DNA of 64,000 nucleotides, taken from the NCBI GenBank assembly GCA_030632085.1, contig DAOVJY010000005.1, positions 37,476 to 101,475 of the forward strand, written 5' to 3'. The DNA comes from Candidatus Omnitrophota bacterium (GTDB taxonomy: Bacteria; Omnitrophota; Gorgyraeia; JAGLLT01). Positions 37,295 to 56,695 of this stretch are shown here, one piece after another. The notes below the pieces were generated by a model that was not told the DNA's origin, did no database searches, and was given only the letters and a program-made list of their open reading frames with translations. A program made the position numbers and the translations under genes. How positions within the stretch are numbered: position 1 is the first letter of the stretch; each line of letters begins with the position of its first letter.

Positions 37295-37382
37295 GGAGGA
37301 GTGGCTGAGCGGTTGAAAGCGGCGGTCTTGAAAACCGTTGTGCCGAAAGGTACCGTGGGTTCAAATCCTACCTCCTCCGCCA
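37295..37382 (+). tRNA. tRNA-Ser (anticodon UGA)
   Basis: Cloverleaf by eye: acceptor GGAGGAG/CTCCTCC, 3-bp D-stem, anticodon loop CTTGAAA, long variable arm, T-loop TTCAAAT, ends GCCA. Confidence 0.85.
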
Positions 37383-39053
37383 GTGATACCAATTCGAACC
37401 TTTGCGTTTCTCGTCTAAGAGCGCAAGGGTTTGAATTTTTGTATGGGCGACATAGTACGGCTTGAATTTCTTTTCGCCGCTATGGATAATCTGATAAAAG
37501 TCTGAATCCTCATCAGATATTGGCTCAAGCCGAATTGGCCCAAGAACCTCTTTAAGAGCCAGGCCGGCTGTAACAGTATTCTTATTCAGTGTTTCGCGTA
37601 ATCTCTCAAGTCTTAAGTTAATCCATTCCTTTGCAGGCGCCTTAAAGGTATTCTGCTGCTGAAATTCCAACGAGACAATTTCCTGTTTTAGGCTTTCACT
37701 CCTCTTTTCTGTTTCATTTAGAGCCTGTGATACTGATTTAGAAAAGTTTCCTATTTTAATGTAGTTAAGATAATTTTGTAGTTCAGATAGAAGCTTATCA
37801 AGCCGCGATTTCTTTTTTTTAATCAATTCAGGCACTTCATTCAGGCCGGAAGTAACAAGCTTTTCTACATTTTTATAAACGTAGCTTAAATTTTCAGCGG
37901 TTAATATCTTTTGCTTTAACTCTGAGATAATGGTTTGTTCTATTCTTTTGCGCGGCACAAGAAGGTTATTATTGCAGGTTTTTCTTCTGGCGTTATAGCA
38001 CCCGTAATAACCGCTTCCTTTTCCGCTAATAAGGACGATAGCTCCGCCGCAGATATCACATTTCATTAGCCCTGAAAGTAAGTAATTGGGACTGCCATAC
38101 ACATAACTTCTTTGCTTTGTTTGACTATTTTTTTCATTTTTTCTTATAGGCCATGTTCCCTTGATTTCTACCCATCTTTTTTGAGCCTTTCTCCATGTTT
38201 CCTTGTCAATTATAATTAATTCTTTTTTAAATATAGACAATTGTTCTTCTTTTGGGCGAGGAACCTTTTTTATTCTTCCCGTTATAGGATCTCTGAGATT
38301 TTTGTACTTTCTCCATATCCATAAGCCGGTATACTTTTCATTTTTTAAAATTCTACTTATAGTTGATATGTTCCATCCACCGGGACGCCCTCTTTTAGTT
38401 GGAATCTTATTTTTGTTAAGGTCCCGCGCTATTTTATTTAAACTTTTTCCTTCAATAAAGTTTTTATATATATCGCTAACAACATCAACTTCAGCGGGAT
38501 TTATTTTATGAACCATTCCTTCGTATTTAGGCTGCCCCTTCTTGTTTAGCTTTAATTCACCCGAGGGCTGGGTGTGATAGCCATAAACATGCTCGCCGGT
38601 GCTGAAACCTCTTATTTTTTGCCCCTCTAAGCCGCGCATTGTCTTTTTCTTAAGGTCATCAAGATATAACTCATTCATAAGCCCCCGTATATGAATACCT
38701 AATTTAGAATTTTCATCATCTGTTACAATGCCATCTGAAACAGAGATTATTTTAATTTGAAGGTAGTTAAATTTAAGCACAAGTGTCAACATTTGATGAT
38801 TGCTTCGAGAAAGACGGGATAAGTCATCTACCATAACCGCTTCAAATTCCTTATTTTCAGCAGCTATTTGCAGAGATTGTAATGCGGGACGATTAATAAT
38901 AGAACCTGAAATTGCTTCATCAATATAGATATGTCTATTTTTAACACTCATATCGTTGTCACGCGCGTAATTTTTACAGACTCTAATTTGATCATCAATG
39001 CTCTTTTCACTTTGATTTTCAGAAGAATACCTTGCGTATATTGCTACTTTCAT
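37368..39053 (-). CDS. Large serine recombinase (integrase)
   Basis: N-terminal resolvase catalytic domain ([12 protein letters not shown]), recombinase and zinc-ribbon domains (CDICGG...[10 protein letters not shown]); 3' end overlaps tRNA-Ser by 15 nt. Confidence 0.85.
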
Positions 39054-39122
39054 TTTAACCCCCCTTAATGACTACATGATTTACGAAAATCTTTGATTTT
39101 CTTAAATCGTTTGTAGGAATTA

Positions 39123-39164
39123 ATCCCCCCTGATTTGTTTTGCGGCGCAAAACATGTGGGGGAT
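39123..39164. promoter_or_regulatory. 42-bp imperfect palindrome upstream of the integrase (candidate recombinase site)
   Basis: ATCCCCCC-TGATTTG-TTTTGCG-G-CGCAAAA-CATGT-GGGGGAT: outer and inner arms are reverse complements. Could alternatively be an operator or terminator hairpin. Confidence 0.3.
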
Positions 39165-39566
39165 ATAAATTATATCAATTTGTCAATTTCAGCACCTATC
39201 TTCATTTGAAAAAGTTTCAGGATTTTGTTTGGCTATGCTGATGTATTCATCGGCAATTATAGAAGCCGCAACATCCAATAGTTCTTGAACAGAGAGATTA
39301 TCAGCCCAGCTTAAATTTATTGGTTGAATTGTTGGATTATTTAGCAGTTTTGTTTTCACTAAAAAACCTCTTGATATTAAAAAATCCAGCGTTATAATAG
39401 CATTATAAGGAAAGCAATAAATTAATAGTTATCTAATAATATAATAATAGCATTATATTGATAGTATGTCAATAGAAATCATCAACAATTTTAAGTGCAC
39501 CTAAAAGATTTATATTGATCCTGAAGTCGAAGGCTGAAGGATCTTAGAATCTAAAGTGAGGGGATT

Positions 39567-39761
39567 ATGCTTTCAAAAAACATAAAACAACTAAGAAAGA
39601 AACACAATTTATCTCAGGAACAGCTTGCCCAAAAAGCGGGAATTACTTACAGCACGCTTATTAAAATAGAGTCGGGGGCAAACAAAAATCCTACGCTCGA
39701 AACTCTAAGAAAAATTTCTAATGTTTTTAAAATTAAGATAGATGAGTTGGTTGGGAGGTAG
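39567..39761 (+). CDS. XRE-family HTH transcriptional regulator
   Basis: Cro/CI-type HTH (LSQEQLAQKAGITYSTLIKIESG). Confidence 0.8.
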   Translation: MLSKNIKQLRKKHNLSQEQLAQKAGITYSTLIKIESGANKNPTLETLRKISNVFKIKIDELVGR

Positions 39762-40512
39762 TAATTGGAGAAGGATAGGTATGAGTAATAAAAAATTATA
39801 TTCAAACGCTATTCGGAACTGGCCAGAGGAGGACCGGCCCCGAGAAAAGTTGCTCAAATACGGAGAACATACGTTGAGCAATGCGGAATTAATAGCCATT
39901 CTTATCAGAATAGGCACACCGGGCAAAAGTGCTGTTGATATTGCTCGGGAATTATTACAAAAATTTAAAACACTGCGTTCCTTAAGCAGTATGGATATTA
40001 CAGAATTCAGACAAATAACCGGATTAAAAGACGCTAAGATCACTCAGATAAAAGCAGCAGTCGAATTAGGAAGAAGATTGATGAGCGAAGAAAAGGCCTT
40101 TATCGGCACTGTAAAAAAATCGTCCGATGTGGCTCATTTTCTTATGCCGCTTATGCGGGATTTAAAAAGAGAGTGTTTTAAACTCTTATTGCTGGATAAA
40201 AGGAACAGCATCACCAATATCCTTGATATTGAAAAAGGCTCTGTTGATAAAGTAAGTCCATCAATACGTGAAATACTTCATGTCGCCATAAAATTTCAGG
40301 CTCCAGGGCTTATCATTGTTCATAATCATCCGTCCGGCGACATTGAACCAAGTGATGCGGACAAATCCTTAACCCGTGCATTAGTTATCGCTGCTTCATC
40401 AATGGAATTGCGCGTATTCGATCACATCATTGTTGGAGAAAATCAACATTTCAGCTTTACTGATAAGGGATTAATAGAAGAATATGAAATGCTGGCAGTA
40501 AGTAAAATATAA
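39742..40512 (+). CDS. radC: RadC-like JAB/MPN domain protein
   Basis: HhH N-terminal region; JAMM motif HNHPSGD; probable true start at ATG 39781 (MSNKKLY) with RBS. Confidence 0.85.
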   Translation: MSWLGGSNWRRIGMSNKKLYSNAIRNWPEEDRPREKLLKYGEHTLSNAELIAILIRIGTPGKSAVDIARELLQKFKTLRSLSSMDITEFRQITGLKDAKITQIKAAVELGRRLMSEEKAFIGTVKKSSDVAHFLMPLMRDLKRECFKLLLLDKRNSITNILDIEKGSVDKVSPSIREILHVAIKFQAPGLIIVHNHPSGDIEPSDADKSLTRALVIAASSMELRVFDHIIVGENQHFSFTDKGLIEEYEMLAVSKI

Positions 40513-40527
40513 GAGGAGGGGCCAACC

Positions 40528-42582
40528 GTGACAAAATTATCAAAAAGGGACCGTAAAAGAATCAGCGAACTATTGCGGGCTGGCGAAGGAATCCCTCTTG
40601 ATTACAAAAATATTCTTTTCCCTCCGGAAAAGAGAGAATACGAGTTAGTCTATGCCGGCAAAGAAAGGGAAGAAGATATCCTTGCTGATACTATGGCCGT
40701 TCCTCTTCAAGCAGTGAAAACTTTTGGAAAAAACGGTAAGGGTTGGACAAATAAACTTATCTTTGGTGATAACCTCCAGATTATGAAAAAGCTACTCGAC
40801 GATCCAGAGGTAAATGGCCGAGTAAAACTGATCTATATTGACCCCCCGTTTGCTACGAAACAAGAGTTTCGGGGAAGCCAGGATCAAAAAGCATATCAGG
40901 ATAAAATCGCAGGGGCAGCGTTTATTGAGTTTTTAAGAAAACGGCTCATTTCTCTTAGAGAATTGTTAAGTAAAGATGGTGCAATTTTTGTTCATCTCGA
41001 TTACCGCAAAAAACATTATATAAAAGCAATAATGGATGAAGTATTTGGAGAAAACAATTTTAGAAATGAAATTGCTGTAAATAGAGTGAAAAAGAATGTC
41101 AGAGAAAGAGAACTCGTGAAAAAGCTAAACGAGGAGTTTGATACAATCTTATTCTATTCAAAAAATGCATCATTGTTGATTTTGCCTCCAGATAAAGAAG
41201 ATTATAAGCCTGATAGGTGGCATGCTTTTGATGCCGCAGGTTTTAGAAATGGAATGGATTACGAAATATTTGGTTTTAAGCCAGCAACAACCAGACATTG
41301 GCATTGGACAAAAGAAAAAGCCTATGAAGCAAAGAAAAATTATGAGGTGTGGAAAAGCACGCTTTCAAGCAAAATGACTCTTGGAGAATATTGGGTTAAA
41401 ATGGGGCAAAAACTTAGATTTGTTAGGCCAAGTCAAAATACGAGGAAGCCAGAATATTTTATTCCGGCTACTGAACAAACTCTTTGCAATAATTTGTGGA
41501 ATGATTTATCAGCATACTCTTTTCAGCATAGTTACCCGACAGAAAAAAACGAAAAACTTCTTAAACGAATTATAAATATGGCTACATCAAAGGGGGATAT
41601 CGTACTTGATGCTTTTGCCGGTTCTGGTACGACGTGTGTAGTTGCGGAAAAGTTAGGCTGCCGTTGGATTGGTATTGATTGCGGCAAGCTGGCGATTTAC
41701 ACTATCCAGAAAAGAATGCTTAACTTGAAATCTGAAATCGGCAATAAAGGAAAAAAATTAAATCCCAAACCGTTTACGCTTTATAATGCCGGTCTTTATG
41801 ATTTTCCAAAGTTAAAAAAACTTCCCTGGCAGGATTGGCGCATCTTTGCCTTACATCTTTTTAATTGCCACGACGATAAACATACCGTCTCAGGCATTGA
41901 GCTTGATGGTTACAAAGGAAGGACAGATGTTCTTGTTTTTAATCATCAGCAAGACGGCGGCGTGATTCTTGACTATGGTTTTATTGATGATTTACATTCC
42001 ATGCTTGGCTCAAAAACAGGTAAACAATTTTTTATTATCGTGCCGGCGGCCAGTGTGACATTCTTGGAAGACTACATTGATAGGGGCAATACTCGTTACT
42101 ATGTTCTGCGTATACCGTATTCCATAATAAACGAATTGCATAATCGTGCCTTTGAAGCCATAAAACAGCCTATTGATGAAACCCAGGTCAACGATACCGT
42201 TGACGCCGTGGGTTTTGATTTCATCCGGCAGCCAAAGGTAGAATGCGAATATTTTACTAAAGATGATACTGCCACCATCAAAATAAAAACTTTTAAAAGC
42301 GAGGCAATGACCAAAGGAGTGAGCATTCTTAGCAATAGAGAATCTCTTTCTATGGTAATGGTAGATTTCAATTATGCTGGTGAAATTTTTAATTTAAAAA
42401 AAGTGTATTACGCCAGTGAGATAGAAAAAAATAAGTGGGGAATTCATCTCCCTGTTGAATCAATTAAGAGCCAGCTTATGATCATTTATCTGGATATCTA
42501 TGGCAATGAATACCGCGAGATTAAAACATTAAAAGATTTTAAACCCTTTGAGAATAGGAAAAAAGTAAAAGGGAGAAAATAG
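40528..42582 (+). CDS. Type III restriction-modification Mod-like DNA methyltransferase (N6-adenine/N4-cytosine, beta class)
   Basis: GTG start with RBS; catalytic DPPF (LIYIDPPFAT) precedes AdoMet motif FAGSGTT. Confidence 0.8.
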   Translation: MTKLSKRDRKRISELLRAGEGIPLDYKNILFPPEKREYELVYAGKEREEDILADTMAVPLQAVKTFGKNGKGWTNKLIFGDNLQIMKKLLDDPEVNGRVKLIYIDPPFATKQEFRGSQDQKAYQDKIAGAAFIEFLRKRLISLRELLSKDGAIFVHLDYRKKHYIKAIMDEVFGENNFRNEIAVNRVKKNVRERELVKKLNEEFDTILFYSKNASLLILPPDKEDYKPDRWHAFDAAGFRNGMDYEIFGFKPATTRHWHWTKEKAYEAKKNYEVWKSTLSSKMTLGEYWVKMGQKLRFVRPSQNTRKPEYFIPATEQTLCNNLWNDLSAYSFQHSYPTEKNEKLLKRIINMATSKGDIVLDAFAGSGTTCVVAEKLGCRWIGIDCGKLAIYTIQKRMLNLKSEIGNKGKKLNPKPFTLYNAGLYDFPKLKKLPWQDWRIFALHLFNCHDDKHTVSGIELDGYKGRTDVLVFNHQQDGGVILDYGFIDDLHSMLGSKTGKQFFIIVPAASVTFLEDYIDRGNTRYYVLRIPYSIINELHNRAFEAIKQPIDETQVNDTVDAVGFDFIRQPKVECEYFTKDDTATIKIKTFKSEAMTKGVSILSNRESLSMVMVDFNYAGEIFNLKKVYYASEIEKNKWGIHLPVESIKSQLMIIYLDIYGNEYREIKTLKDFKPFENRKKVKGRK

Positions 42583-42583
42583 C

Positions 42584-45118
42584 GTGCCGGATCAAAAACG
42601 ATTTCTTAACCAGGATTTAGTGTTAAGGGTTACTGAAAACATTAATCTTTCTGTATTTGATATTAATAAGTATGAGGGTTTCATTGATGCTCTATGCGGT
42701 GATCGCGACTATCAGAAAGAAGCTATCCGAGCAACCCTTCGCTATCTACTCGGTGATCAATACCGCAATCTTTCCGCCCTTGCGGAAGAAAATCTAAAGT
42801 CTAATATAATCTTGCAAGATTTATATGGCTCATTTAATGAAATGAAAAAACACCTCCAGTTTTCCAATAAGCTTTCCTGTTCTCTGGACATGGCCACCGG
42901 CACCGGAAAAAGCTATGTAATCTACGCTATTGCGCGCATTATGCTGGCTGAAGGTGTTGTGGATCACGTTCTTGTGGTGTGTCCTTCCACCACCATAGAA
43001 ACAGGTCTTATGGAAAAATTTAGACTGCTTTCTGGTGATGCGACATTACGAGATCTTCTTCCAGACAACTCTATCATTAAAAATCCCCACATTATCAATG
43101 CCACCGAAAGCATAGCGACCGGTGCAATCTGCGTGGAAAACTGCCATGCTCTTTATGAACATGTAAAATCATCCATCCGCGAAAGCCTTGCCGGAAAAGG
43201 AGAGCGTACACTTATCGTTAATGATGAAACACACCATGTATACAATCAAACCGGGAAAGATTTCAAAAAATGGAAAGAATTTATCCTGGAGAAAGAGTTT
43301 AATTTCAAATACATCGTGGGACTTTCTGGAACTTGTTATATCAATGATGAATATTTTACTGATGTCATCAGTCGTTATTCTCTTAAGGAGGCTATCGAAC
43401 AAGGCTTTATAAAAACAATTGATTATGTTGCTCAAGATACATCTACTACCCAGAATGAAAAATTTCAAAAAATATATGACAACCACATTGAAAACAAAAA
43501 CACCAAATACCGCTTAATAAAGCCTCTTACCATTTTAATCACAAAAGACATCCGCGCCTGCAACAAACTTGCCGAAGATTTAATAAAGTTCCTTTCAAAA
43601 AAAGAAGGCATTTCCGTAGACGATGCTTCTCAGAAAGTATTAGAAGTAACTTCTTCGCCAAAACACAAAGAAAATGTTTGTAAACTTACAGAAGTAGACA
43701 GAAAAAATTGTCCTATAGAGTGGATTGCCTCAGTAAGTATGTTAACCGAAGGTTGGGATGTAAAAAATGTTTTTCAAATCGTTCCTCATGAAGAACGCGC
43801 TTTTAATAGTAAACTTCTTATTGCTCAAGTACTAGGACGGGGCTTAAGGATTCCGGAAGTGTATCTTGGCCAAAGACCGGTGGTTACCGTATTTAATCAT
43901 GATCGCTGGTCTAGCAGGATAAAGCACCTTGTTGATGAAGTGCTCGAAATAGAAAATAGAATCTACTCCTATCCCGTAAAAAAAAGACCTGACTACAACT
44001 TTTATATCCACCAGATTGATTATGCCCGTTTAAAAGAAACCGAAGAATACAAACAAGAAAAGGAATACGAATTTAAAAAAGGGTTTATCACCTTCATCAG
44101 GCAAGCCCCAGCGCTTGAACGAGAAACAGAATATATTCGCGTAACCACACAAGAAATCAGAAAAAAGAAGACGCTTGTCACATACAAAATGTTCTCCATA
44201 GAAGAAATTGCCGAACAGATATATAATCGTTTTAGATCAATCGATATGGAAACGGCCGTGTCAGATATGCCCACTAACTATACAAACAAATACAGCATCG
44301 ACTGGTTGAAAGTCCTCATTAAGAAATCTTTGGAACGTATCGGCGAGAAAGGTAGCCAGGTCAGCGATGAAAACAGGCAAAGGATATACCAGGCATTTGG
44401 CGTTCTTCATCGATCGGCCGCCAAAGCCGTCCGTTATAAAATGTCCCCAAAGGCCTTGGTTAAAATTAAAACGCAGGGGCGAAAAAAGTGCAGTGCTGGT
44501 TTTGCGTCCTTAAGGCGCGGCGACGCTACTATCTTCTGGGACGATAATTCAAAAAACCTGTGCGCAGAAGAAGACATAAATTTTATAAAAGAACTCAAAA
44601 CTCAAAAAGACGAACTTCCTGGCAGCGCAATGCAATATGTATCAAATGCCTACCATTTCAAAACCCCTTTAGGCATTGCAATCGCCAGCCATAAACCAGA
44701 ACGCCTTTTTATCCGCGGACTTGTCAAGGAGGAAAACGCCAAAATAATTGACAGCTGGATCAAATCAACCGATCAAGAATTCTATCCTATTGATTATTCA
44801 TGGAGAAAAGGAGAGCATCCTAAACGTGCACGTTTCAATCCGGATTTTTTTATTAAAGTTGGCAAGTCCATCCTTGTGGCAGAAATAAAAGGCGATGAAG
44901 AAATCAAAGATCCTTCTGATGAAAACAAAGCAAAATATAAAGCAGCTAAAAGGCACTTTGCTATCTTGAACAAGCAACAATCAGAGTTCAACTATTTTTT
45001 TAATTTCTTAACTCCCGACGATTACGACTACTATTTCAATCACCTGCGTAAAAAAAACTTTACATTTAACTCAAAACTCGATGCAGAACTTGATAAAAAT
45101 GGTAATGGCAAAAAATAA
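42584..45118 (+). CDS. Type III restriction enzyme Res subunit (SF2 helicase-nuclease)
   Basis: Walker A MATGTGKS, DEAH-like NDETHH, helicase C-terminal motifs; directly follows mod with 1-nt gap. Confidence 0.8.
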   Translation: MPDQKRFLNQDLVLRVTENINLSVFDINKYEGFIDALCGDRDYQKEAIRATLRYLLGDQYRNLSALAEENLKSNIILQDLYGSFNEMKKHLQFSNKLSCSLDMATGTGKSYVIYAIARIMLAEGVVDHVLVVCPSTTIETGLMEKFRLLSGDATLRDLLPDNSIIKNPHIINATESIATGAICVENCHALYEHVKSSIRESLAGKGERTLIVNDETHHVYNQTGKDFKKWKEFILEKEFNFKYIVGLSGTCYINDEYFTDVISRYSLKEAIEQGFIKTIDYVAQDTSTTQNEKFQKIYDNHIENKNTKYRLIKPLTILITKDIRACNKLAEDLIKFLSKKEGISVDDASQKVLEVTSSPKHKENVCKLTEVDRKNCPIEWIASVSMLTEGWDVKNVFQIVPHEERAFNSKLLIAQVLGRGLRIPEVYLGQRPVVTVFNHDRWSSRIKHLVDEVLEIENRIYSYPVKKRPDYNFYIHQIDYARLKETEEYKQEKEYEFKKGFITFIRQAPALERETEYIRVTTQEIRKKKTLVTYKMFSIEEIAEQIYNRFRSIDMETAVSDMPTNYTNKYSIDWLKVLIKKSLERIGEKGSQVSDENRQRIYQAFGVLHRSAAKAVRYKMSPKALVKIKTQGRKKCSAGFASLRRGDATIFWDDNSKNLCAEEDINFIKELKTQKDELPGSAMQYVSNAYHFKTPLGIAIASHKPERLFIRGLVKEENAKIIDSWIKSTDQEFYPIDYSWRKGEHPKRARFNPDFFIKVGKSILVAEIKGDEEIKDPSDENKAKYKAAKRHFAILNKQQSEFNYFFNFLTPDDYDYYFNHLRKKNFTFNSKLDAELDKNGNGKK

Positions 45119-45252
45119 CCTGAAGGGAAAAAGGGGGAAATGGGAACAGGCCTAATTAATATTGCTAAAATAATTGACAGGAATTTTAGAAAACAGTAGC
45201 CTTGGTAAAAAAAGTAATTATTGTGTCCCCGGATTCTGCAACGAACCTTTAA

Positions 45253-46518
45253 ATGGTGCGGTTTAATATGACAAAAAAGTTGGTGCAAAGACAATTTACT
45301 GTTGTTGACCTTTTTGCGGGAGCAGGAGGATTGCTTGAGGGATTCAGGAGGAAAGGGTTCAATATAATTTCTTCTGTCGAAATGAATTCCCATGCCTGCG
45401 ATACGCTCAAGACCAGACATACTTATTGGGATTATAAGGTAAAGAAAAAGCAAAGCGCATATTGGGATTATGTGCAGAAAAAAATCACCAGAGAAGTATT
45501 CCTGAATGGTTTGCCGGAAAACGCAGTTATAAATGTAGAGATTTCTCCCAAAACTATAAATGAGATTTCTCGACGGATTAGAGAGCAAATGAAGGAGATG
45601 AATGTATCTTCTATTGATGTTTTTATCGGAGGTCCTCCCTGTCAGGCATATTCCCTTGTAGGGAGAGCGCGAGACCCCAAAAGCATGAAGGATGACCCAA
45701 GAAAACAGCTATATAAGCACTATGTTCAATTACTGAAAAAGTTCATGCCTGAAGTCTTTGTGTTCGAGAACGTGCCGGGAATACTTTCAGCTGATGGTGG
45801 CGCATTATTTGAAGAGGTAAAGAAATATTTTGGAAAAGCAGGATACGTTGTTGAGCACAAAAAGCTGATTGCTTCTGACTTTATGGTTCTTGAGAACAGA
45901 AAAAGGGTTATATTAATTGGCTGGAAAAAGGATCGTGATCTGAAATATCCAGAGTTTAAACCCAAAAAACATGATTATCTTACAGCAGAATTATTTAAGG
46001 ATTTACCTCCACTAAACCCCGGAGAGGGTAGTGATGTTTCAGAGTACGTTAATAACGTATCAGATTATCTGAAGAAATCAAAAATTAGACATATAGAGCC
46101 CGTGCTTACGCACCACGTGACGAGGCCAATTAATGATAATGACAGAGAGATTTATAAAGAAGCTCTTGTTTTGTGGGAAACAGAAGGGAAAAGGCTTAAT
46201 TACGCTGATCTGCCAGAGAAACTAAAAACACATAAAAACCAGGCTTCGTTTCTTGACAGATTCAAAGTAGTAGCCGCTAATGAAGCAGCATCACACACAG
46301 TTGTTGCACACATCGCAAAAGACGGACACTATTATATACATCCAGACATCAAACAGCTAAGGTCAATAAGCGTCCGAGAAGCAGCACGAATACAGTCTTT
46401 TCCAGATAACTACTTTTTTGAGGGTCCGAGAACTGCAAAACTTGCCCAGATAGGAAATGCAGTGCCACCGCTTATGGCAGAAGCTATTGCTGGTAAGATA
46501 AAGGAGATGTTGAAATGA
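45253..46518 (+). CDS. dcm: DNA (cytosine-5)-methyltransferase
   Basis: Motif I FAGAGG, motif IV GGPPCQAYS, motif VI ENV, motif X QIGNAVPP. Confidence 0.9.
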   Translation: MVRFNMTKKLVQRQFTVVDLFAGAGGLLEGFRRKGFNIISSVEMNSHACDTLKTRHTYWDYKVKKKQSAYWDYVQKKITREVFLNGLPENAVINVEISPKTINEISRRIREQMKEMNVSSIDVFIGGPPCQAYSLVGRARDPKSMKDDPRKQLYKHYVQLLKKFMPEVFVFENVPGILSADGGALFEEVKKYFGKAGYVVEHKKLIASDFMVLENRKRVILIGWKKDRDLKYPEFKPKKHDYLTAELFKDLPPLNPGEGSDVSEYVNNVSDYLKKSKIRHIEPVLTHHVTRPINDNDREIYKEALVLWETEGKRLNYADLPEKLKTHKNQASFLDRFKVVAANEAASHTVVAHIAKDGHYYIHPDIKQLRSISVREAARIQSFPDNYFFEGPRTAKLAQIGNAVPPLMAEAIAGKIKEMLK

Positions 46519-48629
46519 AGGGAAATAAATTTCGGACACGTGCCAGACTTATTCAACAATTAGGTCTTCAGTTAATCAAGAATGAGGGTATTGCGCTTTT
46601 GGAATTAGTTAAAAATTCTTATGATGCAGATGCTTCATTTTGTACAGTAGAAATGAATAAGGTTAATATTCCTCAAAAGGGTTCTATTGTTATTACAGAT
46701 GATGGAGAGGGGATGGATGACGATATTTTACGCTCTGCCTGGCTTGAGATTGGGACAAGTCACAAAGAAGAATTAGCCTCTAATCCGGAAACCAAACGTA
46801 CAGACAAATTCAAGAGATTACGTTTAGGAGAAAAGGGAATTGGGAGACTTGGAGTTCATAGATTAGGGAAGTTTATAAAAATTATTACTAAAAGGGGCGA
46901 ATATGAATATGTTCTCGAAATTGATTGGGACAAATTTGAGCAAAAAAAATATATAGAAGATGTTGAGATTGTTATAAAAAGGCGTACTCCTGAAATCTTT
47001 GAGAAAAAAGAATCAGGGACAAAGATCATTATTACTAAATTACGAATTGCTTGGACACGAAAAAGAGTGCGTGAGTGTTGTAGGGCAATCACTTCTTTAA
47101 ATTCCCCTTTTCAGGACAAAACATCATTCAAGGCAACTCTTAATATTGATAATAAAGATTGGATAAAGGGATTGCTTGATTTTAATAATATTAAAAAATA
47201 TAAACTTTTTGAGTTTTCAATATGCATGGAAAAAAATGAGATAACAGAATTCAATTATAAATTTATTCCGTGGAGTACAATGCCTAAGTTAAAAGTGAGG
47301 CATATTACCAAGGATAACAAAGAAATAAAGTCTGTGCTGAGAATGGTATATAAAGATAAGGAAACTAGAGAATATCAAGATATAGATTTGTCAAAGCATA
47401 AAATTGGTCCAGTTCAATTTAAAGGTGTGATCTTTGATAGAGATGCGCGTGTTTTAGAATTGGGAGTTCAAGATAAAAGCGGTTTAAAGAAATATTTAGA
47501 TGCAAATGGGGGTATTAGGGTTTTTAGAGACAATATGCGCGTACTGGATTATGGTGAGCCAGGGAATGATTGGCTTGACTTGGGCGGAAGACGTGTTAAT
47601 GTTCCAACAAAAAGAATAAGTAATAACATTATAATTGGGGGAGTTTTTCTCAATCGTGCTAAAAGTAGTGACCTTAAAGAAAAAGCTAACAGAGAAGGGT
47701 TCCTTGAAGATGATGCTTATGATGAACTTGTTAAAGCAGTCCTCTATGCAATAGATAAGCTTGAAACATTCAGAAAGACAGATAAAGATTTATTAAGAAA
47801 ATATTATGGCCCTCAAAAAAATATTGAGCCAGTAATCACATCAATTGCAGAGCTAAAAGATATTGTTGAAAAAAATGTTAAAGAGAAAAATGTCCAGAAT
47901 ACGATCAATGTATACCTTGACCGTATAGAGCAGGATTATGAACGAATTACTGAAAGCTTAATTAAAAGTGCCGGAGCTGGATTAAATCTTATCGTTGTGA
48001 TACATCAGATAGAGAAAATAATTAAAGATATTAAAGCTGCACTTAAAAGTAAGGCGGTTAATAAAAGTATTTTGGGAAGAGTTGAAGATCTTGCTTCTCT
48101 TGTCGAAGGATATAGTATTCTCATAAAAAATTCTGAAAAAAAAGAGCGCAACTTAAAAGGTATAATAAATCAGTCATTATTTAATACAAAATTTCGCTTT
48201 GAAGCGCATGGCATAAATGTTAGGAAAGAATATGAGTCAAAAAGAAAGGGATTTGATGCTATTTGTTCGGAAGGACACGTTTTGAATGCCCTGATGAATC
48301 TTTTTGATAATTCTATATGGTGGCTGGGATATTCAAAAACTAAAAATCCAGAAATTTATATCGATGTTTCTGATGCAGTGCCTGGGGGCTATGTAAGCAT
48401 TATTATTGCAGATAATGGCCCGGGTTTCTCAATGCCGGTAGAAGAGCTTACGAAACCATTTGTGAGTAATAAGCCGGGAGGTATGGGAATAGGACTTCAC
48501 CTTACAAATGAAATCATGAAGTCTCTAAAAGGAAGATTGGTTTTTGATGTGGAGGAGTATTTTGATATACCGTCTAAATATAAAAATGGTGCAGTAATCG
48601 CTCTGGCATTTAAGAAAGAGGAGAAATGA
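46515..48629 (+). CDS. Dual Bergerat-fold ATPase: N-terminal MutL/MORC-type GHKL domain and C-terminal histidine-kinase-type HATPase_c domain
   Basis: N-terminal ELVKNSYDADA, DDGEGM, GEKGIGRLG; C-terminal NALMNLFDNS, IADNGPGF, GGMGIGLHL. ATGA start-stop overlap with dcm. Confidence 0.6.
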   Translation: MKGNKFRTRARLIQQLGLQLIKNEGIALLELVKNSYDADASFCTVEMNKVNIPQKGSIVITDDGEGMDDDILRSAWLEIGTSHKEELASNPETKRTDKFKRLRLGEKGIGRLGVHRLGKFIKIITKRGEYEYVLEIDWDKFEQKKYIEDVEIVIKRRTPEIFEKKESGTKIIITKLRIAWTRKRVRECCRAITSLNSPFQDKTSFKATLNIDNKDWIKGLLDFNNIKKYKLFEFSICMEKNEITEFNYKFIPWSTMPKLKVRHITKDNKEIKSVLRMVYKDKETREYQDIDLSKHKIGPVQFKGVIFDRDARVLELGVQDKSGLKKYLDANGGIRVFRDNMRVLDYGEPGNDWLDLGGRRVNVPTKRISNNIIIGGVFLNRAKSSDLKEKANREGFLEDDAYDELVKAVLYAIDKLETFRKTDKDLLRKYYGPQKNIEPVITSIAELKDIVEKNVKEKNVQNTINVYLDRIEQDYERITESLIKSAGAGLNLIVVIHQIEKIIKDIKAALKSKAVNKSILGRVEDLASLVEGYSILIKNSEKKERNLKGIINQSLFNTKFRFEAHGINVRKEYESKRKGFDAICSEGHVLNALMNLFDNSIWWLGYSKTKNPEIYIDVSDAVPGGYVSIIIADNGPGFSMPVEELTKPFVSNKPGGMGIGLHLTNEIMKSLKGRLVFDVEEYFDIPSKYKNGAVIALAFKKEEK

Positions 48630-49918
48630 TGCAGTTATCTAAAAATGGGAAAGTTGTGATTGTCGATAATGTTTTTACAGAAGCTAAACCTTTACTTGAT
48701 GTTTTAAATATGAACCAAATCCCCTATTTATATTTTGATGGTAAGGTTGATTCTTTACCTGAAACTCCTTGCAAAGGGATTAGATTTGTTTTTCTTGATA
48801 TAGCTTTGGAAGGAATGGATGGCGCAGATACAAAAACAAAAGCTTCAGCAATCGTAGGGATATTAGAAAAAATTATTTCGAAGGATAATGGTCCTTATGC
48901 GATTATTTTCTGGACAAAACATCCCGAAGTTATTGAAAGAACTCTTAAAAACTGTCAAATAAGGGGAATAAAGCCTGTAATTTCACTTGATCTAGATAAA
49001 TCAGAATGTAAAGAAGGTGAGACGTACTCTCTTAAGGCGATTTTAGAAAAATTAAAAACAAAGGCAGAAAAATTGGGTCCATATAGTTTATATATAATGT
49101 GGGAAAATATAGCTGCTGATTCAGGGACTGAATTTATTAACAGTTTTGCTAACATCTTTGAATTTGATGATAACTGGAGTGAAAACACAAGGCATCTTTT
49201 TTATCGTCTATATAAGGCTTATACTGAAAAAAATGAGGTTTCAGATGATAAAGACAAGATATTGTGCGTTCTGCAACTCATTAATCGAAGCTTTAAGGAT
49301 TTGCTAGATAATAATACTGTTAACTGTAGAGAAAAATTAAATTTATTTGAATTCCCATCGACTCCTACTGACGAAGAAGAAAAGAGGACTTTTTCCCAGA
49401 AAATCAATGAAATAATTTCCGATGAAATAATCGCTAAAATAAATAATAGTCTTTTTATTATTGATAATCCTGATTTCTCGCAATTATCCACAGTTGTTTT
49501 TAAATATGCTGACGAAGAATTGAAAAATATTTTTTTGGATAAATGTTTTGAAAAGATTTCAGAAGTAGCTAAAGCATCTGCCCAACTTTGTCGTCTTGTG
49601 ATAACACCTCAATGTGATATATGTCAAGATAAAGCCATATTGCATAGAGTCCTGTATGGAATTATTTTCAACGAAGATGATGCCACTAAATGTAGAAAAG
49701 GGCCGTTATTTCCTTTTGGTCCCTTTTATTTCCATGATAGTTCCAAGTCGATAGTTTTTCACTTGCAATCAATAACTACTTGTAAGAAAGATGAATTGTG
49801 TTCTAAAGAGGTGTTATTTGGACTACGAAAAGATTTATTTTTTGATATACAGGCCAATTCTGCAAATCATGTTAACCGACATGGTAATTTTGCAATAAAA
49901 AAGCAATTTAAAATATAA
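48626..49918 (+). CDS. Uncharacterised protein with receiver (CheY)-like N-terminal domain and unknown Cys-rich C-terminal domain
   Basis: VVIVDN...RFVFLDIALEG...IIFWTKHPE resembles REC beta1/beta3/beta4 elements (inference); ATGA overlap with upstream ATPase gene. Confidence 0.35.
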   Translation: MMQLSKNGKVVIVDNVFTEAKPLLDVLNMNQIPYLYFDGKVDSLPETPCKGIRFVFLDIALEGMDGADTKTKASAIVGILEKIISKDNGPYAIIFWTKHPEVIERTLKNCQIRGIKPVISLDLDKSECKEGETYSLKAILEKLKTKAEKLGPYSLYIMWENIAADSGTEFINSFANIFEFDDNWSENTRHLFYRLYKAYTEKNEVSDDKDKILCVLQLINRSFKDLLDNNTVNCREKLNLFEFPSTPTDEEEKRTFSQKINEIISDEIIAKINNSLFIIDNPDFSQLSTVVFKYADEELKNIFLDKCFEKISEVAKASAQLCRLVITPQCDICQDKAILHRVLYGIIFNEDDATKCRKGPLFPFGPFYFHDSSKSIVFHLQSITTCKKDELCSKEVLFGLRKDLFFDIQANSANHVNRHGNFAIKKQFKI

Positions 49919-49919
49919 C

Positions 49920-50093
49920 GTGGTTATTGTGCATGTATTCAACTTTGAAAATAGTGTCAGAAATAAATTATTTTTATGGTTTAAGAAAAATGCACGTTCA
50001 TTTCCATGGCGAACTATTAAAGACCCCTATCGTTTGATGGTTGCCGAGTTCATAAAAAAAGGGGTCAGAGTCATTTTTCATTCTGGTAGATAA
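49920..50093 (+). pseudogene. N-terminal fragment of a MutY/Nth-family (HhH-GPD) DNA glycosylase
   Basis: Translation ...LFLWFKKNARSFPWRTIKDPYRLMVAEFI then degenerates and stops; matches N-terminal signature of MutY/Mig-type glycosylases. Not in ORF track. Confidence 0.35.
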
Positions 50094-50495
50094 ATGTTGT
50101 ATCGCCAGATTTTCGCATGTTCCCAGATTTATTGGGATGTGTCCCTATTAAAATGGAGATAGGGGGCGATTCTATTTTAAAATAGTATGTGTTTTGATAA
50201 AAATTAATTTAAAAGAAGTGTAGAATCAGAGGGGACACAATACTAATTTTAGTAATAAAACAGAAGGCAAATAATAAATAGGTATCGTGTCACCAGATTT
50301 TTAGAAAATACATAATTGTTAGGAAGAATTTCCGCAAAACAACTTTGTCGATAAAATATTTTTCCAAAAAGCCAAGTATTTATTCTTTATATTAAAACGA
50401 CTTATCAAGCAAAAGCTAGCTTCAAATTCACATAATGTCTGATTATAGGATCCTGAGGTTCTTATTTATATTTTGTTTCCCTTTATCTAACTCCG

Positions 50496-52355
50496 TTGTA
50501 TAATAAAAAGAAAAATGGAGGAAAAATGTATATAAAACGAATCGTTATAAAGAATTACCGAAATTTAAAAGATATAGACCTTTCCTTTGGCGCAGGGTTA
50601 ACTTGTATTGTAGGTGAAAACAATTCTGGAAAAAGTAATTTTTTACATGCAATACGGTTGGCCTTAGACATGAATCTGCCGTATTATGTTAGACAGTTAA
50701 CAGAAGATGATTTCGCCAAAGAAGTAGACTTCAGCGTGCCACAACAGATTGTGGTAGGAGTACAATTTACGGATTTTTTTTCAGGTGCAGATGACGATAA
50801 GGTAAAGGAGCACGCTCTAGCGCAAGAGTGGGGTTTGGACGGGGAAACAGCACAAGTATGTTATCGGTTTAGACCTAAAGGTTCAGTGCGTAGGAATATA
50901 GCTTCTGGTGAGCGTGAACCAAAAAATTTAACCATAGAGGATTATGATTCAGAACTAGTAGCTGGGCCGATAGTTTGTGAAGACGGAGGCACAAAAGATT
51001 TGTCAGAGGTTTGTTGGGACGATGATTTTTCAACAGCTGTAAAATTTAATAGGCTATCAACGTATCGAGTAGCATTTTTACAACCTATTCGAGATGTTGA
51101 AGATGATCTGCGCCGACAAGCACGCTCCCCATTGTATAAGCTGATAAAAGTATCGGATATGTCTGATGAAAAGAAAAAAGAACTAATAAAAAAGATAGAT
51201 GATGTAAATAAAGAGATATCATCTGAAGCGGAAATCCAACAAATTGCTCAAGACATAGATGATTCCTTCAGTGCAGCGGTAGGCTCTATATTTAAAATGA
51301 ATACAAAGATAGGCATGATGTCGCCAACCTTTAGAGACATCACCCGCTCTTTAAAAATTTTACTGTCCGGACAGGGGCTGGAAGAGGCGAATATTTCTAG
51401 AAATGGGTTAGGGTTAAATAATATTTTATACATGAGTATGTTGTTGGAATATTACAAGAAACAAGGGGAGCAAGAAGATACCGCTGGCGAATTATTGTTG
51501 ATTGAAGAACCAGAGGCGCATCTACATCCCCAACTGCAAAGAGTCTTGCTGGGAAGATTAGAAAACAAAGAATGTCAAATAATCACGACCAGTCATAGTA
51601 CGCATATTACTTCACGTGTGGATTTAAATGAAGTGATAGTTTTTACGCGAAATACGGAGTATGAGATATCAGCTAAAAGATTGAGTGATAACAATTGGTC
51701 GTCTGATAACGATAAGGATGATTTGGAGAGATATATAGATGCTACAAAATCAGTTTTGTTATTTGCTAAAAAGGTTATTCTGGTAGAGGGAATGGCAGAA
51801 GTTTTCCTGATTCCTTTTTTAGTGAAAAAGATCAAAGAAATAGATCTAGAAGAGCATGGCATATCAATAGTTCCCATTCACGGCGTTCATTTTTCTTCAT
51901 ACTTAAAACTTTTTGGAAATGAAGCTATAAAAAAGAAATGTGCAGTTATAACCGACGGGGATCTAAGGCCTAGCGATTCATTTAATTCGGAAGAGGGGGA
52001 TTTCCCAAGAGTAGATTCTTTGAGAGATTTTGAAAATGACTTTGTAAGGATATTTCATTGTGGAACAACATTTGAAATAGAAACCGCATCTCCCAGCAAT
52101 TTAAAGATGTTCGCAAGTTCAGCTAATGAGCTAGGAGCGCCGCGAGTGGCGAAAGATCTAATGGAAAGCTATAAAAAGAAAAGTGAATTATCTGCGAAAG
52201 AAAAACTAGAAATGAGTAAAAAAGTTTTGAACACCGCAAAAAGGTTTGGTAAGGCACGATATGCACAGATATCATCACGGTATTCACAGTATGCCGAAGA
52301 ATTACCGACATATTTAGATAATGCAATTGATTGGTTGATAGATGAAGCTGACTAG
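50496..52355 (+). CDS. gajA: OLD-family ATP-dependent nuclease (GajA-like: ABC-type ATPase + Toprim)
   Basis: Walker A GENNSGKSN, Walker B LLLIEEPEAHLHP, Toprim residues VILVEGMAE and ITDGD; probable true start ATG 50526 with GGAGG RBS. Confidence 0.8.
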   Translation: MYNKKKNGGKMYIKRIVIKNYRNLKDIDLSFGAGLTCIVGENNSGKSNFLHAIRLALDMNLPYYVRQLTEDDFAKEVDFSVPQQIVVGVQFTDFFSGADDDKVKEHALAQEWGLDGETAQVCYRFRPKGSVRRNIASGEREPKNLTIEDYDSELVAGPIVCEDGGTKDLSEVCWDDDFSTAVKFNRLSTYRVAFLQPIRDVEDDLRRQARSPLYKLIKVSDMSDEKKKELIKKIDDVNKEISSEAEIQQIAQDIDDSFSAAVGSIFKMNTKIGMMSPTFRDITRSLKILLSGQGLEEANISRNGLGLNNILYMSMLLEYYKKQGEQEDTAGELLLIEEPEAHLHPQLQRVLLGRLENKECQIITTSHSTHITSRVDLNEVIVFTRNTEYEISAKRLSDNNWSSDNDKDDLERYIDATKSVLLFAKKVILVEGMAEVFLIPFLVKKIKEIDLEEHGISIVPIHGVHFSSYLKLFGNEAIKKKCAVITDGDLRPSDSFNSEEGDFPRVDSLRDFENDFVRIFHCGTTFEIETASPSNLKMFASSANELGAPRVAKDLMESYKKKSELSAKEKLEMSKKVLNTAKRFGKARYAQISSRYSQYAEELPTYLDNAIDWLIDEAD

Positions 52356-54114
52356 AGAACAGGTAAACGCTGTAAAATGTAGTAGCAATGTTGCTTTGGA
52401 ATCTTGTCCAGGAAGCGGAAAGACAAGAACCATTGTGGCGAAGCTTTTAGAATGCCTGGATGACGTCAGACAAACTACAAGAATGATTAGTTGTATAACA
52501 TATTTGAACTCAGCTGTAAATGAAATTAATCACAGATTAAGTAGTTGTATAACTCATGAAGAGCTAGAAGATTATTATGAGATAGGAACGATACATTCTT
52601 TTTGCCTGAGGAATATCTTTCGGCTAAATTATTGGAGGATAGATAAGTTTTCAGGAGGGTTTGCGATTATAACGCCAGACGATGATGAGTATAAAGAATT
52701 TGTTAGCAATATTATTGAGAATAATTCTCTCGACCCAAAATCATTCGATGACTTCAGCTTTTTGGTGAGAGAAGGCAAGATTTCGGGTAGGATGTCAGAT
52801 AAAGCCGCAAAAGAGTATTGGGAATATCTAGATGATAATAATTTAGTGGACTTTAACGATATAATATATTATTCAGCATGTCTAATACGGGAGAATGAAT
52901 ATATTATCGCTGGTCTCTCAGCAAAATATGCATGGATTTTAGTAGATGAATTTCAAGATACATCTATCCATCAAAAAGAGATCCTCAAAGCTATTTCAGA
53001 TTATAAAAGGACAAAGTTTTTTATTGTAGGGGATCCCTGTCAATCGATTATGGGTTTTGCTGGAGGAAGTTCGCTCTTAATGAAGCAGTTTTCAAAGGAG
53101 ATAGTTGCAAAGAATGATTTTTCATTAACGGGTAATTTCCGGAGTTCCAGTAGAATAATTAATTGTGCTGAAGAATTGCTTCCTCGTGATCCAAAAATGG
53201 ACGCAGTTGGAGAAAATAAATATTATAATCATAGCCCATTATGGATAAGAGCATGTGATTCCTTTTCTGGAATAGATGAATATTTTCTTCCAGCAATTAA
53301 GGAACATAATATTTCTTTAGGAGAATGCGCAATTTTAGCTCCAAATTTTTATATTTTCTTAAAGTTGGCTCCTAAAATGAGAGAAGCTGGCATATCTATA
53401 CTTGGTCCAGGATCACGCCCATACCGTAGGTCAAATCACATAATAGCTCCTTTAATTGAAGAGGTTTGCTTATTTATAGAAACACAGGACATAAAACAGA
53501 TAAAGATTATCCGATATAAAATTTTGGATGTAATTACTATATGCGAAGATAAAGTGGACAAAGATTTCTTTACGTTAAAAGGTGATATTGCTATCTTAAA
53601 AATATTGAACGCAGCAAAGAACTTAAAGAACAAAAATGTAAATGCTAAGCAATTTATTGTATCTTTTTCAGAAGAAATTGCTTCGTTGTTGCATGAGAGA
53701 GGATTCATAAAAAAAGAGGCCATAAGTCATATAGCGACCTCTGGGAAAGGATTAGTTTCTGATATAGAGGAACATTGTTCTGGCGATCCGTATAGTGGAG
53801 ACAATTTAACTATAGAAGATTTAAGCTTATTTAGTATCAATTCTGAGAGCATTAAATTATTAACCTTGCATAGGGCCAAGGGGAGGGAGTTTGATGCTGT
53901 AGCTGTAATATGCGTTCATGATGGATTGATTCCTTATGGCGCCCCTTATGCTGGTAGCGATGAGGAAAATGAATCAAGGCGCTTATTTTATGTTGGCATG
54001 ACAAGGGCTCGTAAATTGCTAATGTTTTTTACAGAGGTGAGGAACCTTAGGAGTCCTTCTCGTTTTCTGACAGAATTATTCCCAGCTGGTCCACACATAA
54101 TAGCTGACGTCTAA
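52342..54114 (+). CDS. gajB: UvrD/PcrA-like SF1 helicase (GajB-like)
   Basis: Walker A GSGKT, DExQD-type LVDEFQDTS, motif III GDPCQSI, motif VI YVGMTRARK; 14-nt overlap with the OLD nuclease gene. Confidence 0.8.
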   Translation: MKLTREQVNAVKCSSNVALESCPGSGKTRTIVAKLLECLDDVRQTTRMISCITYLNSAVNEINHRLSSCITHEELEDYYEIGTIHSFCLRNIFRLNYWRIDKFSGGFAIITPDDDEYKEFVSNIIENNSLDPKSFDDFSFLVREGKISGRMSDKAAKEYWEYLDDNNLVDFNDIIYYSACLIRENEYIIAGLSAKYAWILVDEFQDTSIHQKEILKAISDYKRTKFFIVGDPCQSIMGFAGGSSLLMKQFSKEIVAKNDFSLTGNFRSSSRIINCAEELLPRDPKMDAVGENKYYNHSPLWIRACDSFSGIDEYFLPAIKEHNISLGECAILAPNFYIFLKLAPKMREAGISILGPGSRPYRRSNHIIAPLIEEVCLFIETQDIKQIKIIRYKILDVITICEDKVDKDFFTLKGDIAILKILNAAKNLKNKNVNAKQFIVSFSEEIASLLHERGFIKKEAISHIATSGKGLVSDIEEHCSGDPYSGDNLTIEDLSLFSINSESIKLLTLHRAKGREFDAVAVICVHDGLIPYGAPYAGSDEENESRRLFYVGMTRARKLLMFFTEVRNLRSPSRFLTELFPAGPHIIADV

Positions 54115-54262
54115 TTATACCCACACAATAAAAACTTGTATATAGAGAGATAATGAGGAAAAAATCTATTTTCCTTGATTTTCTATTCGTATTTATTATA
54201 TATAACCGTCTCTTTTGTTCTCAAAGTGATGATACTAAGAATTCCAGAAGCACAATATCTAA

Positions 54263-54466
54263 CTAACCAACAACATTTTTTTTAACATAAATTTCAAAGA
54301 TACCGTTTCTTAGCCTTGTCCCATGTATTTTTGACTTCGGGATCCAGATTTTCATGCCGTTATCTACCAATATAGCTTTATCAGTCTCATGTAAGATGCG
54401 GACTTGAATCCAGATGTATTTTTCGTCAGGGTATAATAGTCTATAAATGTTGAATGGCCGGGGCAT
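54263..54466 (-). CDS. Small hypothetical protein
   Basis: 67-aa ORF directly downstream of the HTH ORF on the same strand; no recognisable motif. Confidence 0.2.
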   Translation of the reverse strand: MPRPFNIYRLLYPDEKYIWIQVRILHETDKAILVDNGMKIWIPKSKIHGTRLRNGIFEIYVKKNVVG

Positions 54467-54470
54467 AGGG

Positions 54471-54668
54471 TTATCTCCTTTTAAATTGACAGGCTTTTTT
54501 GGCAGTATTCTTGCCTATTTTTAAAGCTTTGGCTATTTGCTTGTAAGTCATTCCCAGTAAATGCAATTCACTTGCTTTTTGGGCTAATTTTTGGTATAAA
54601 TAGATTCGTTGGGCGGGTTGAATCTTGATATGAGCCGATATTTCAGCAATAGTTCGAATTGGTTGCAA
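54471..54668 (-). CDS. Small HTH protein, possibly a transposase N-terminal fragment
   Basis: HTH-like LGMTYKQIAKALKIGKNTAKK; only 65 aa, at the distal edge of the island. Confidence 0.25.
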   Translation of the reverse strand: MQPIRTIAEISAHIKIQPAQRIYLYQKLAQKASELHLLGMTYKQIAKALKIGKNTAKKACQFKRR

Positions 54669-54696
54669 CCGCGTCCGCCATTATAGCAAAGAGCCC

Positions 54697-54724
54697 GTAG
54701 TGTAGAGCGTAGGGCAAAGATAGA
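54697..54724. repeat. Copy of dispersed TAGAGCG-core repeat
   Basis: GTAGTGTAGAGCGTAGGGCAAAGATAG followed by CCAAAAAAAGGATTTTAAGGGAAAAGAT; about 70-75% identical to 56738-56830. Confidence 0.45.
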
Positions 54725-54855
54725 TTGCGCAGGGACGAGAACCCAAAAAAAGGATTTTAAGGGAAAAGATTGCTCCCTCTCCTCAGGGGTTTAGGCTTCT
54801 ACTTTAAGGTAATTAAATAGCGCGTTCCTCGATTTTTTGCAAAAATAGGAGGTGC

Positions 54856-55308
54856 TTGATGAAGCAGTTTTTTAAATGTGCGATAGGCGCAAGTGTGGTT
54901 TTATTTATGTTAATTTCCGGGGTATGTGCCCAAGATCAAAACCCGATTGCGATTTTCTACGGCGGCTTAGCTGATATTATTCAAGAAAACATGAATTCAC
55001 CGCAGCAATGTGTTGCTGAAGCTGAGAGTTTTATTGATGTTAATATCGGCCCTCTCCAGAGAGCTATGCAGCGGGGCGCGCAGATGTCTCGATCCGACAG
55101 CCACAAGCAAATGGATGAAAGTCAATTCCAAGCCTCTCTGGAACAAATGGGCAAGTTGATGTCCCAAGACGGCGGAATACAAGCCATGAATAGGTATGTG
55201 GACGCCATTACTATTTTTGGAGACAAGTACCCTGAGTACGCAGAACAAATTATGATTAAACTAAACAGCCATAGCCAAGAACAATTTCAGGGATTTAAGG
55301 ATTATTAG
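54856..55308 (+). CDS. Secreted hypothetical protein
   Basis: Signal peptide MMKQFFKCAIGASVVLFMLISGVCA; Gln/Met-rich; no family recognised. Confidence 0.4.
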   Translation: MMKQFFKCAIGASVVLFMLISGVCAQDQNPIAIFYGGLADIIQENMNSPQQCVAEAESFIDVNIGPLQRAMQRGAQMSRSDSHKQMDESQFQASLEQMGKLMSQDGGIQAMNRYVDAITIFGDKYPEYAEQIMIKLNSHSQEQFQGFKDY

Positions 55309-56607: not shown

Positions 56608-56695
56608 GGAGAGATGGCAGAGCGGTTGAATGCGGCGCATTCGAAATGCGTTGTGCCGAAAGGTACCGGGGGTTCGAATCCTCCTCTCTCCGCCA
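56608..56695 (+). tRNA. tRNA-Ser (anticodon CGA)
   Basis: Acceptor GGAGAGA/TCTCTCC, anticodon loop TTCGAAA, long variable arm, T-loop TTCGAAT, ends GCCA. Confidence 0.85.

Follow-up and report, generated by a model that had tools for sequence, protein, structure and literature searches.

Probable remnant of a MutY/Mig-type DNA glycosylase gene between a cytosine methylase module and Gabija in an Omnitrophota defence island

Genes and features of the locus

The window (the whole 64,000-nucleotide stretch of a Candidatus Omnitrophota contig that was analysed) includes, at 37295-54700, what looks like a mobile defence island, in which a type III restriction-modification (R-M) system, a Dcm/GHKL/receiver module and Gabija follow one another (Table 1). 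Elsewhere in the window, a very large ORF (2481 aa, 14160-21605, minus strand) was observed where GC content is locally raised (0.43-0.50).

Table 1 Features of the defence island and of the stub-spacer region, in window coordinates
Feature	Coordinates	Strand	Basis or remark
tRNA-Ser(tga)	37295-37382		Overlaps the 3' end of the serine recombinase gene
Large serine recombinase	37368-39053	minus	
RadC	39742-40512		
Type III R-M, Mod	40528-42582		
Type III R-M, Res	42584-45118		Followed by the Dcm/GHKL/receiver module and Gabija
C5 cytosine DNA methylase, Dcm-type, intact	45253-46518	+	Pfam (PF00145)
GHKL ATPase, 704 aa, paraMORC / HK-like	46515-48629	+	HATPase_c_3 N-terminal, HATPase_c C-terminal
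430-aa protein	48626-49918	+	N-terminal receiver (REC) fold; C-terminal domain without family match
Stub ORF, 57 codons	49920-50093	+	GTG start, TAA stop at 50091-50093; ORF list, sequence
Parts of the stub ORF	49920-50093	+	Codons 1-45, probable Mig/MutY-type HhH-GPD glycosylase remnant; codons 46-57 (KKGVRVIFHSGR, then stop), unrelated read-out
Glycosylase-homologous segment, aa 10-45, ENSVRNKLFLWFKKNARSFPWRTIKDPYRLMVAEFI	49947-50054	+	Alignment, profile, tblastn match 49962-50072
Homopolymer run A7G4	50054-50064	+	Similarity stops exactly here
AT-rich non-coding spacer ahead of gajA	50094-50525	.	Presumably with the gajA promoter region
CCAGATTT, three copies	50105-50300	+	At 50105, 50123 and 50293; two preceded by GTATCG
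Inverted repeat GTGTCCC / GGGACAC	50139-50238	.	Arms at 50139-50145 and 50232-50238, 86 nt apart; chance level
Putative gajA start signals	50499-50528	+	TATAAT perfect hexamer 50499-50504, GGAGG Shine-Dalgarno 50517-50521, ATG 50526; sequence reading
Gabija (gajA 50526-52355, gajB 52342-54114)	50526-54114	+	
Two small ORFs after Gabija	54263-54466 and 54471-54668	minus	The latter with a weak HTH
Second tRNA-Ser(cga)	56608-56695		

Within the methylase module, the GHKL ATPase matches Pfam PF13589 over residues 27-169 and PF02518 over residues 589-699, and the 430-aa protein belongs to a rare family (11 clusters among 5.8 billion proteins) whose genes are preceded by Dcm and GHKL genes wherever enough context is visible; no relatives of the 430-aa protein were recovered from genome contigs or from viral contigs. 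The receiver fold was seen in an AF2 model (block-mean pLDDT of ~75-92 over residues 11-130) for which a Foldseek search of the PDB returned PorX, FixJ, PmrA, CheY and Spo0F, all at probability 1.0, and D14, D15 and D58, the residues of the receiver acidic pocket, are invariant or nearly so across the family. Neither PF19191 (HEF_HK) nor PF19192 (Response_reg_2) matched the window proteins or any of the 11 family members at E<=1. The C-terminal half of the 430-aa protein matched nothing in Pfam or PADLOC, and the protein may act as the effector in the methylase module, perhaps as a nuclease. Invariant residues P328, C330, D331 and R341 and a conserved ...NHVNR.G... tail were observed in that half.

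Gabija was recognized by PADLOC (GajA, E=5e-206; GajB, E=7e-170) in the order GajA (ABC ATPase plus OLD-type TOPRIM) then GajB (UvrD-like helicase), with which Pfam agrees, and alignment to the GajA model begins with the very first residue of the protein starting at ATG 50526. The nearest GajA relative is only 60% identical; a genome-contig search with GajA returned nothing close, and GajA relatives on viral contigs reached at most 38% identity (~30% or less for full-length matches). At a separate locus (L099, 984-5821), Gabija was likewise observed directly 3' of a type III R-M system, resembling the island of the window without its Dcm module; the Res proteins of the two loci share only 26% identity and the arrangement therefore reflects defence-island clustering, which looks convergent, rather than shared ancestry.

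Between the methylase module and Gabija lie a short ORF (hereafter, the stub) and an AT-rich spacer. As initially annotated, the stub begins 1 nt after the 430-aa gene, the stop codon of which (TAA) occupies 49916-49918, and it is in this way physically linked to the last gene of the C5-methylase operon. Inspection of the sequence revealed no Shine-Dalgarno ahead of the GTG, and the gene caller behind the metagenome annotation preferred to the stub an ORF of 34 aa that lies in a different frame (49933-50037). The 57-aa product of the stub reads VVIVHVFNFENSVRNKLFLWFKKNARSFPWRTIKDPYRLMVAEFIKKGVRVIFHSGR. The 57-codon ORF is real.

Glycosylase homology of the stub

Sequence searches returned significant glycosylase similarity for the stub, in agreement with the HhH-GPD N-terminal signature that had been proposed for it. 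The curated NCBIfam model TIGR01084 (mutY; 277 positions) matched through its positions 3-41 with E=3.9e-5, and phmmer against PDB sequences retrieved Geobacillus MutY (E=2.6e-4, with stub residues 15-51 aligned to MutY residues 15-51) and the T:G glycosylase Mig.MthI (1kea; E=8.6e-3). An exhaustive phmmer search of 1.84 billion representative proteins yielded 126 proteins with E values of 1e-3 or lower, the best being 1.3e-5; in each of these matches, stub residues ~10-51 were aligned to the N-terminus of the other protein. The glycosylase-like residues thus delimited are ~10-45, possibly up to 51, a signal carried by only ~36-42 residues. A Pfam scan of the 57-aa product gave no match, the HhH-GPD model beginning downstream of the retained region, and a word-indexed search of the product against 5.8 billion proteins found no relative sharing 5-mer words.

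Within the retained region, in an alignment of 12 sequences, the stub keeps all eight invariant N-terminal residues (W20, N24, P29, W30, R31, P36, Y37 and E43), and the N-terminal helix region is present with its W…R.(F/L)PWR…DPY…E motif, including the MutY-type catalytic Glu. At the end of the similarity, in the same alignment, KKGV replaces a nearly universal LQxT. The helix-hairpin-helix motif, the Gly/Pro-rich loop and the catalytic Asp are absent, nothing beyond profile position 46 being found in any frame; the C-terminal Cys-x6-Cys-x2-Cys-x5-Cys loop of the [4Fe-4S] cluster was not found in 50058-50560 or 54090-54900; and no sequence for the C-terminal NUDIX/MutT-like domain of MutY proper accompanies the stub.

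To place the stub within the family, its full-length matches are informative. Those scanned carry HhH-GPD, and most also HHH. Among matches of Mig length (~218-279 aa), seven of the eight scanned against Pfam lack NUDIX (including P0013, P0014, P0017, P0024, P0030 and P0044), and one, P0044, has in addition a match to the EndIII Fe-S model; by comparison, NUDIX is present in the MutY-sized matches P0028, P0033 and P0049. Those Mig-sized matches that were scanned against NCBIfam scored highest with the mutY model TIGR01084, below its cut-off. Because the Mig-length relatives lack NUDIX, the ancestry of the stub is more likely of Mig type. One of these intact relatives, the 224-aa glycosylase P0017, shares 54% identity with the stub over 35 aa. 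These similarities make it very probable that the stub encodes a truncated N-terminal piece of an HhH-GPD glycosylase of MutY/Mig type.

Extent of the loss and the junction with Gabija

How much of the gene survives was assessed with a profile of 32 full-length relatives (254 positions), the 53.7-bit score of which is circular, the profile having been built from the matches to the stub, and which served for extent only. This profile matches the stub at positions 11-46 of 254; the six frames of 49850-50560 hold no further match, and neither does 54090-54900 after gajB. A second profile, restricted to the C-terminal ~175 residues, reached at best -2.9 bits on the + strand, and its best score overall was equalled by 21 of 200 shuffles. 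Likewise, when four glycosylases, two HhH-GPD proteins of 233 aa and a pair of Vsr proteins served as tblastn queries against the entire 64-kb window, the only match was at 49962-50072, with no second glycosylase and no Vsr. What is retained therefore amounts to about one fifth (~45 codons) of a glycosylase gene, ~80% of which is missing.

The initial annotation had the reading frame degenerate at an A8/G4 homopolymer run. Similarity does stop at such a run, at I45, although the run is A7G4 rather than A8. Similarity ends abruptly, and the codons ahead of that point show no decay, which argues for a breakpoint at 50054-50072 and against both frameshift and slow erosion. We infer that the HhH-GPD motif, the catalytic Asp and the Fe-S cluster were lost through a recombination or deletion event with its breakpoint there; the loss is a truncation and not a frameshift, and the stub is non-functional, its predicted product being unable to act as a glycosylase with those three elements gone.

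The alternative that survives best concerns how the junction arose, namely that, along the lines of the initial annotation, a Gabija cassette with its own leader was inserted in the glycosylase gene, such that the junction lies at 50054-50072 and the spacer is wholly incoming. The abrupt end of similarity after 45 undegraded codons would suit a junction better than slow decay, some Gabija relatives have leaders of ~340 nt (for example, L099), and the island has a mosaic make-up, with several defence systems beside a serine recombinase and a tRNA-Ser. However, the 3' portion of a glycosylase was not found after gajB, either with the profile in 54090-54900 or by tblastn in the 64-kb window, so the event was not a simple insertion, and the spacer DNA is shared by none of the examined leaders of GajA relatives: the upstream DNA of the nine metagenome GajA loci (41-44% identity) in which it was long enough to use is high in GC, and the 339-nt leader of L099, where Gabija is 58% identical and an A7G6 run of its own is present, aligned with the spacer no better than chance (98 of 300 shuffles were as good). 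A 10-nt match, CCAGATTTTC, that flanks Gabija (50105 / 54344) was considered as a target-site duplication and rejected, because 10-mer matches number well over a hundred and this one is at chance level. Deletion, or a Dcm module that arrived already truncated, would fit equally well, and insertion of Gabija into the gene is accordingly a live but tentative possibility. The truncation probably took place on the spot, where the operon meets the segment that bears Gabija.

The spacer itself had been described as structured, which did not hold up: folding of the spacer RNA did not depart from that of shuffled sequences (z-scores of -0.62 for the + strand and -1.51 for the - strand), an Rfam scan gave nothing better than E=3.7, no terminator-like site was seen in the spacer, promoter-like hits were at background and neither strand holds an ORF of >=30 aa. 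The repeats that had been pointed out fared unevenly, in that the letters are there and their excess over chance is not. GTATCG followed by CCAGATTTT occurs at 50099-50113 and GTATCG followed by TGTCA and CCAGATTTTT at 50282-50302, and the self-alignment score of this gapped repeat, GTATCG(N0/5)CCAGATTTT, which is 22, was reached by 57 of 100 shuffles; exact inverted repeats of >=8 nt, longer than the GTGTCCC arms, occurred in 300 of 300 shuffles. The octamer CCAGATTT stands out slightly more, with three copies within 200 nt and four in the whole 64 kb, an enrichment that is marginal (some 8-mer appeared three times in 44 of 1000 spacer shuffles, P about 0.04). This marginal clustering, together with the occurrence of a long leader before gajA also in L099, would be the grounds for giving the spacer a function, whether structural or regulatory (as an sRNA, as a leader or through CCAGATTT operators controlling Gabija). 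We consider such a function unlikely, given the folding and Rfam results, the chance level of the gapped and inverted repeats, the absence of CCAGATTT upstream of gajA in nine relatives and the dissimilarity of the L099 leader. The spacer is ordinary AT-rich intergenic DNA, neither a recognisable decayed glycosylase nor a structured element, in which the TATAAT hexamer is the likeliest gajA promoter element, a putative one with no good -35.

A further alternative is a gene that is frameshifted yet otherwise complete, through slippage in the A7G4 run and with its remainder in 50065-50495. The break does coincide with the homopolymer, a frameshifted Vsr occupies the same slot at another locus (L009, below), and frame +2 contains a stretch, ...DFRMFPDLLG..., loosely like the F..KYPDLL motif of the family. 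This last resemblance was set aside as a continuation of the glycosylase, the C-terminal profile giving it no significance against shuffles. More generally, neither the full nor the C-terminal-only profile recovered further glycosylase signal in any of the six frames, no ORF of >=30 aa follows the stub before gajA, and only 430 nt are left before gajA, against the ~530 nt needed for ~175 missing codons, which together render a frameshifted but complete gene highly improbable.

An assembly artefact uniting two contigs near 50060 is scarcely tenable: the data are metagenome-derived and the junction sits at a homopolymer, but two records assembled separately, from ENA and Logan, contain the identical sequence (100% over 15.7 kb), and an NCBI record, with a 107-kb contig, encodes the same 430-aa protein (P0001, 429 aa, 100% identical), with the proviso that these three assemblies may share reads or derive from one sample. 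Equally hard to credit is a chance resemblance in a spurious intergenic frame or in part of another small gene, for which the short match, the blank Pfam scan, the annotated ORF in a different frame and the GTG without Shine-Dalgarno might speak, but against which stand three independent searches with E values of 1e-5 to 3e-4, matches that are without exception N-terminal to their own proteins, the retention of all invariant residues and a position that is exactly the slot of Vsr in sister operons.

Repair genes of related methylase modules

To interpret the truncated glycosylase, we compared the locus with published and newly recovered relatives of the methylase module. [quoted passage not shown] These triads (Bellieny-Rabelo et al. 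2021) and the window share the order C5-methylase, GHKL HK-like ATPase, receiver protein and T:G repair gene; they differ in that the slot is taken by a Vsr endonuclease in the triads and would have held a glycosylase in the window, a type of enzyme that the paper does not mention, and in that the GHKL and 430-aa proteins of the window miss Pfam PF19191 / PF19192.

Among loci with homologues of the 430-aa protein, repair genes recur in the same slot or close by. L007 carries an intact Vsr that starts 10 nt after the end of the 430-aa homologue, and L005 an intact, uncalled Vsr with a tblastn match from 5 nt after the end of the homologue. In L010, Vsr lies upstream; in L003 (3850-4551) and L012 (570-1271), a 233-aa HhH-GPD protein is encoded just upstream of Dcm; and no repair gene was seen in L004, where TatD is next, or in L014, where the contig ends. 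The Vsr of L005/L006 (9244-9648) is apparently intact, missed by the source annotation, directly 3' of a 412-aa homologue and 60% identical to the Vsr of L007. The 233-aa HhH-GPD protein of L003/L012 is a different glycosylase, its best NCBIfam match being the DR2438-type monofunctional glycosylase. T:G repair genes of at least three kinds, with distant or no relationship to one another, have therefore joined the module.

A parallel to the window is offered by L009, where a Vsr gene directly 3' of a 427-aa homologue is split over two frames (9288-9690, a pseudogene) and is followed by GmrSD, such that in both loci a decayed T:G repair gene occupies the identical position ahead of another defence gene. 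In L009, however, Vsr is whole in two frames, whereas the gene of the window is ~80% gone and of a different family. L009 is a second, independent decay of a T:G repair gene in the same slot. It might be proposed more broadly that loss of T:G repair is recurrent, the fourth slot being a hot spot in which Vsr and Mig-type genes are swapped and are destroyed (as in the window and L009) when Gabija or GmrSD dock at the 3' end, with the stub and its CCAGATTT leader serving as a docking or regulatory sequence that gives Gabija read-through control; we regard this combined proposal as quite unlikely.

The closest full-length relatives of the stub have comparable neighbourhoods. P0013 is encoded immediately 3' of a C5-methylase in an R-M locus, and P0017 lies in a Logan contig (L018, SRR22580799, 10-4717) in the order GHKL (707 aa), 403 aa, 225 aa and glycosylase, downstream of the GHKL gene and in the same orientation. 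The two GHKL proteins are homologous (26% identity, E=5e-34), but the 403-aa protein has no BLASTP similarity to the 430-aa protein of the window, the middle genes being not detectably similar, and a 225-aa gene is additional; because of the dissimilar 403-aa gene, L018 counts as a cousin of the module in the window rather than as another example of it. The contig of L018 begins inside the GHKL gene, and a methylase is consequently not seen. No family match was observed for the 403-aa or 225-aa protein.

Among characterized enzymes, the nearest likeness is to Mig.MthI, the T/U:G glycosylase of the Methanothermobacter plasmid pFV1, which has in common with the stub the N-terminal …W…N.R.FPWR…DPY..L+.E… pattern; the subfamily with only the MutY catalytic domain (~220 aa, HhH-GPD and HHH, no NUDIX), to which Mig belongs, includes the closest full-length relatives of the stub, and linkage to a C5-methylase is found in the Mig.MthI subfamily (here P0013) as it is for the stub. 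According to Horst and Fritz in 1996, Mig is said to act on the T left by deamination of 5-methylcytosine (5mC), and the Mig.Mth gene is reportedly linked to a C5-methylase. Compared with Mig.MthI, the stub represents ~20% of a gene, without the HhH motif, catalytic Asp or Cys4 cluster, and is a remnant rather than a working member of the subfamily.

Mig is described as narrowly restricted in sequence context, with a role in removing T from deaminated 5mC (PMC2926615). Together with this role, the repair genes of the sister loci, whether Vsr or HhH-GPD, and the neighbourhoods of P0013 and P0017 lend good support to the proposal, made in the initial annotation, that the stub is a decayed gene whose product was the T:G repair partner of the C5-methylase module upstream, with the caveat that no close genome provides an intact orthologue at this position for a comparison of the states before and after the loss. 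Under this repair-partner reading, the stub would be the first ~45 codons of a Mig-type gene for a T:G/U:G mismatch DNA glycosylase with a MutY-like catalytic domain and no NUDIX, a gene that formerly stood fourth in the C5-methylase / GHKL 'HK-like' ATPase / receiver operon and was translationally coupled. The searches demonstrate the homology and how far it reaches, the lack of any further part of the gene and the comparative context; beyond these, the ancestral job would, by knowledge of the family, have been removal of thymine after deamination of the 5-methylcytosine made by the operon methylase, the role that Vsr has in the sister operons; activity of the ancestor on T:G mismatches in the sequence context of the methylase is predicted, and the stub itself cannot have it.

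The stub is a genuine but ordinary pseudogene fragment, of a known enzyme family with a known functional association. For annotation, the 57-codon ORF would become a glycosylase pseudogene fragment and the spacer intergenic DNA. More broadly, these comparisons suggest that the poorly understood C5-methylase / paraMORC-HK-like / receiver modules have Vsr or a Mig-type glycosylase as an anti-deamination partner, and that this partner is dispensable enough to be lost, as seen twice in about nine instances. If the methylase of the window is still active, its host would have 5mC sites without linked repair, and C-to-T decay is predicted at the target sites of the methylase unless a chromosomal enzyme compensates.
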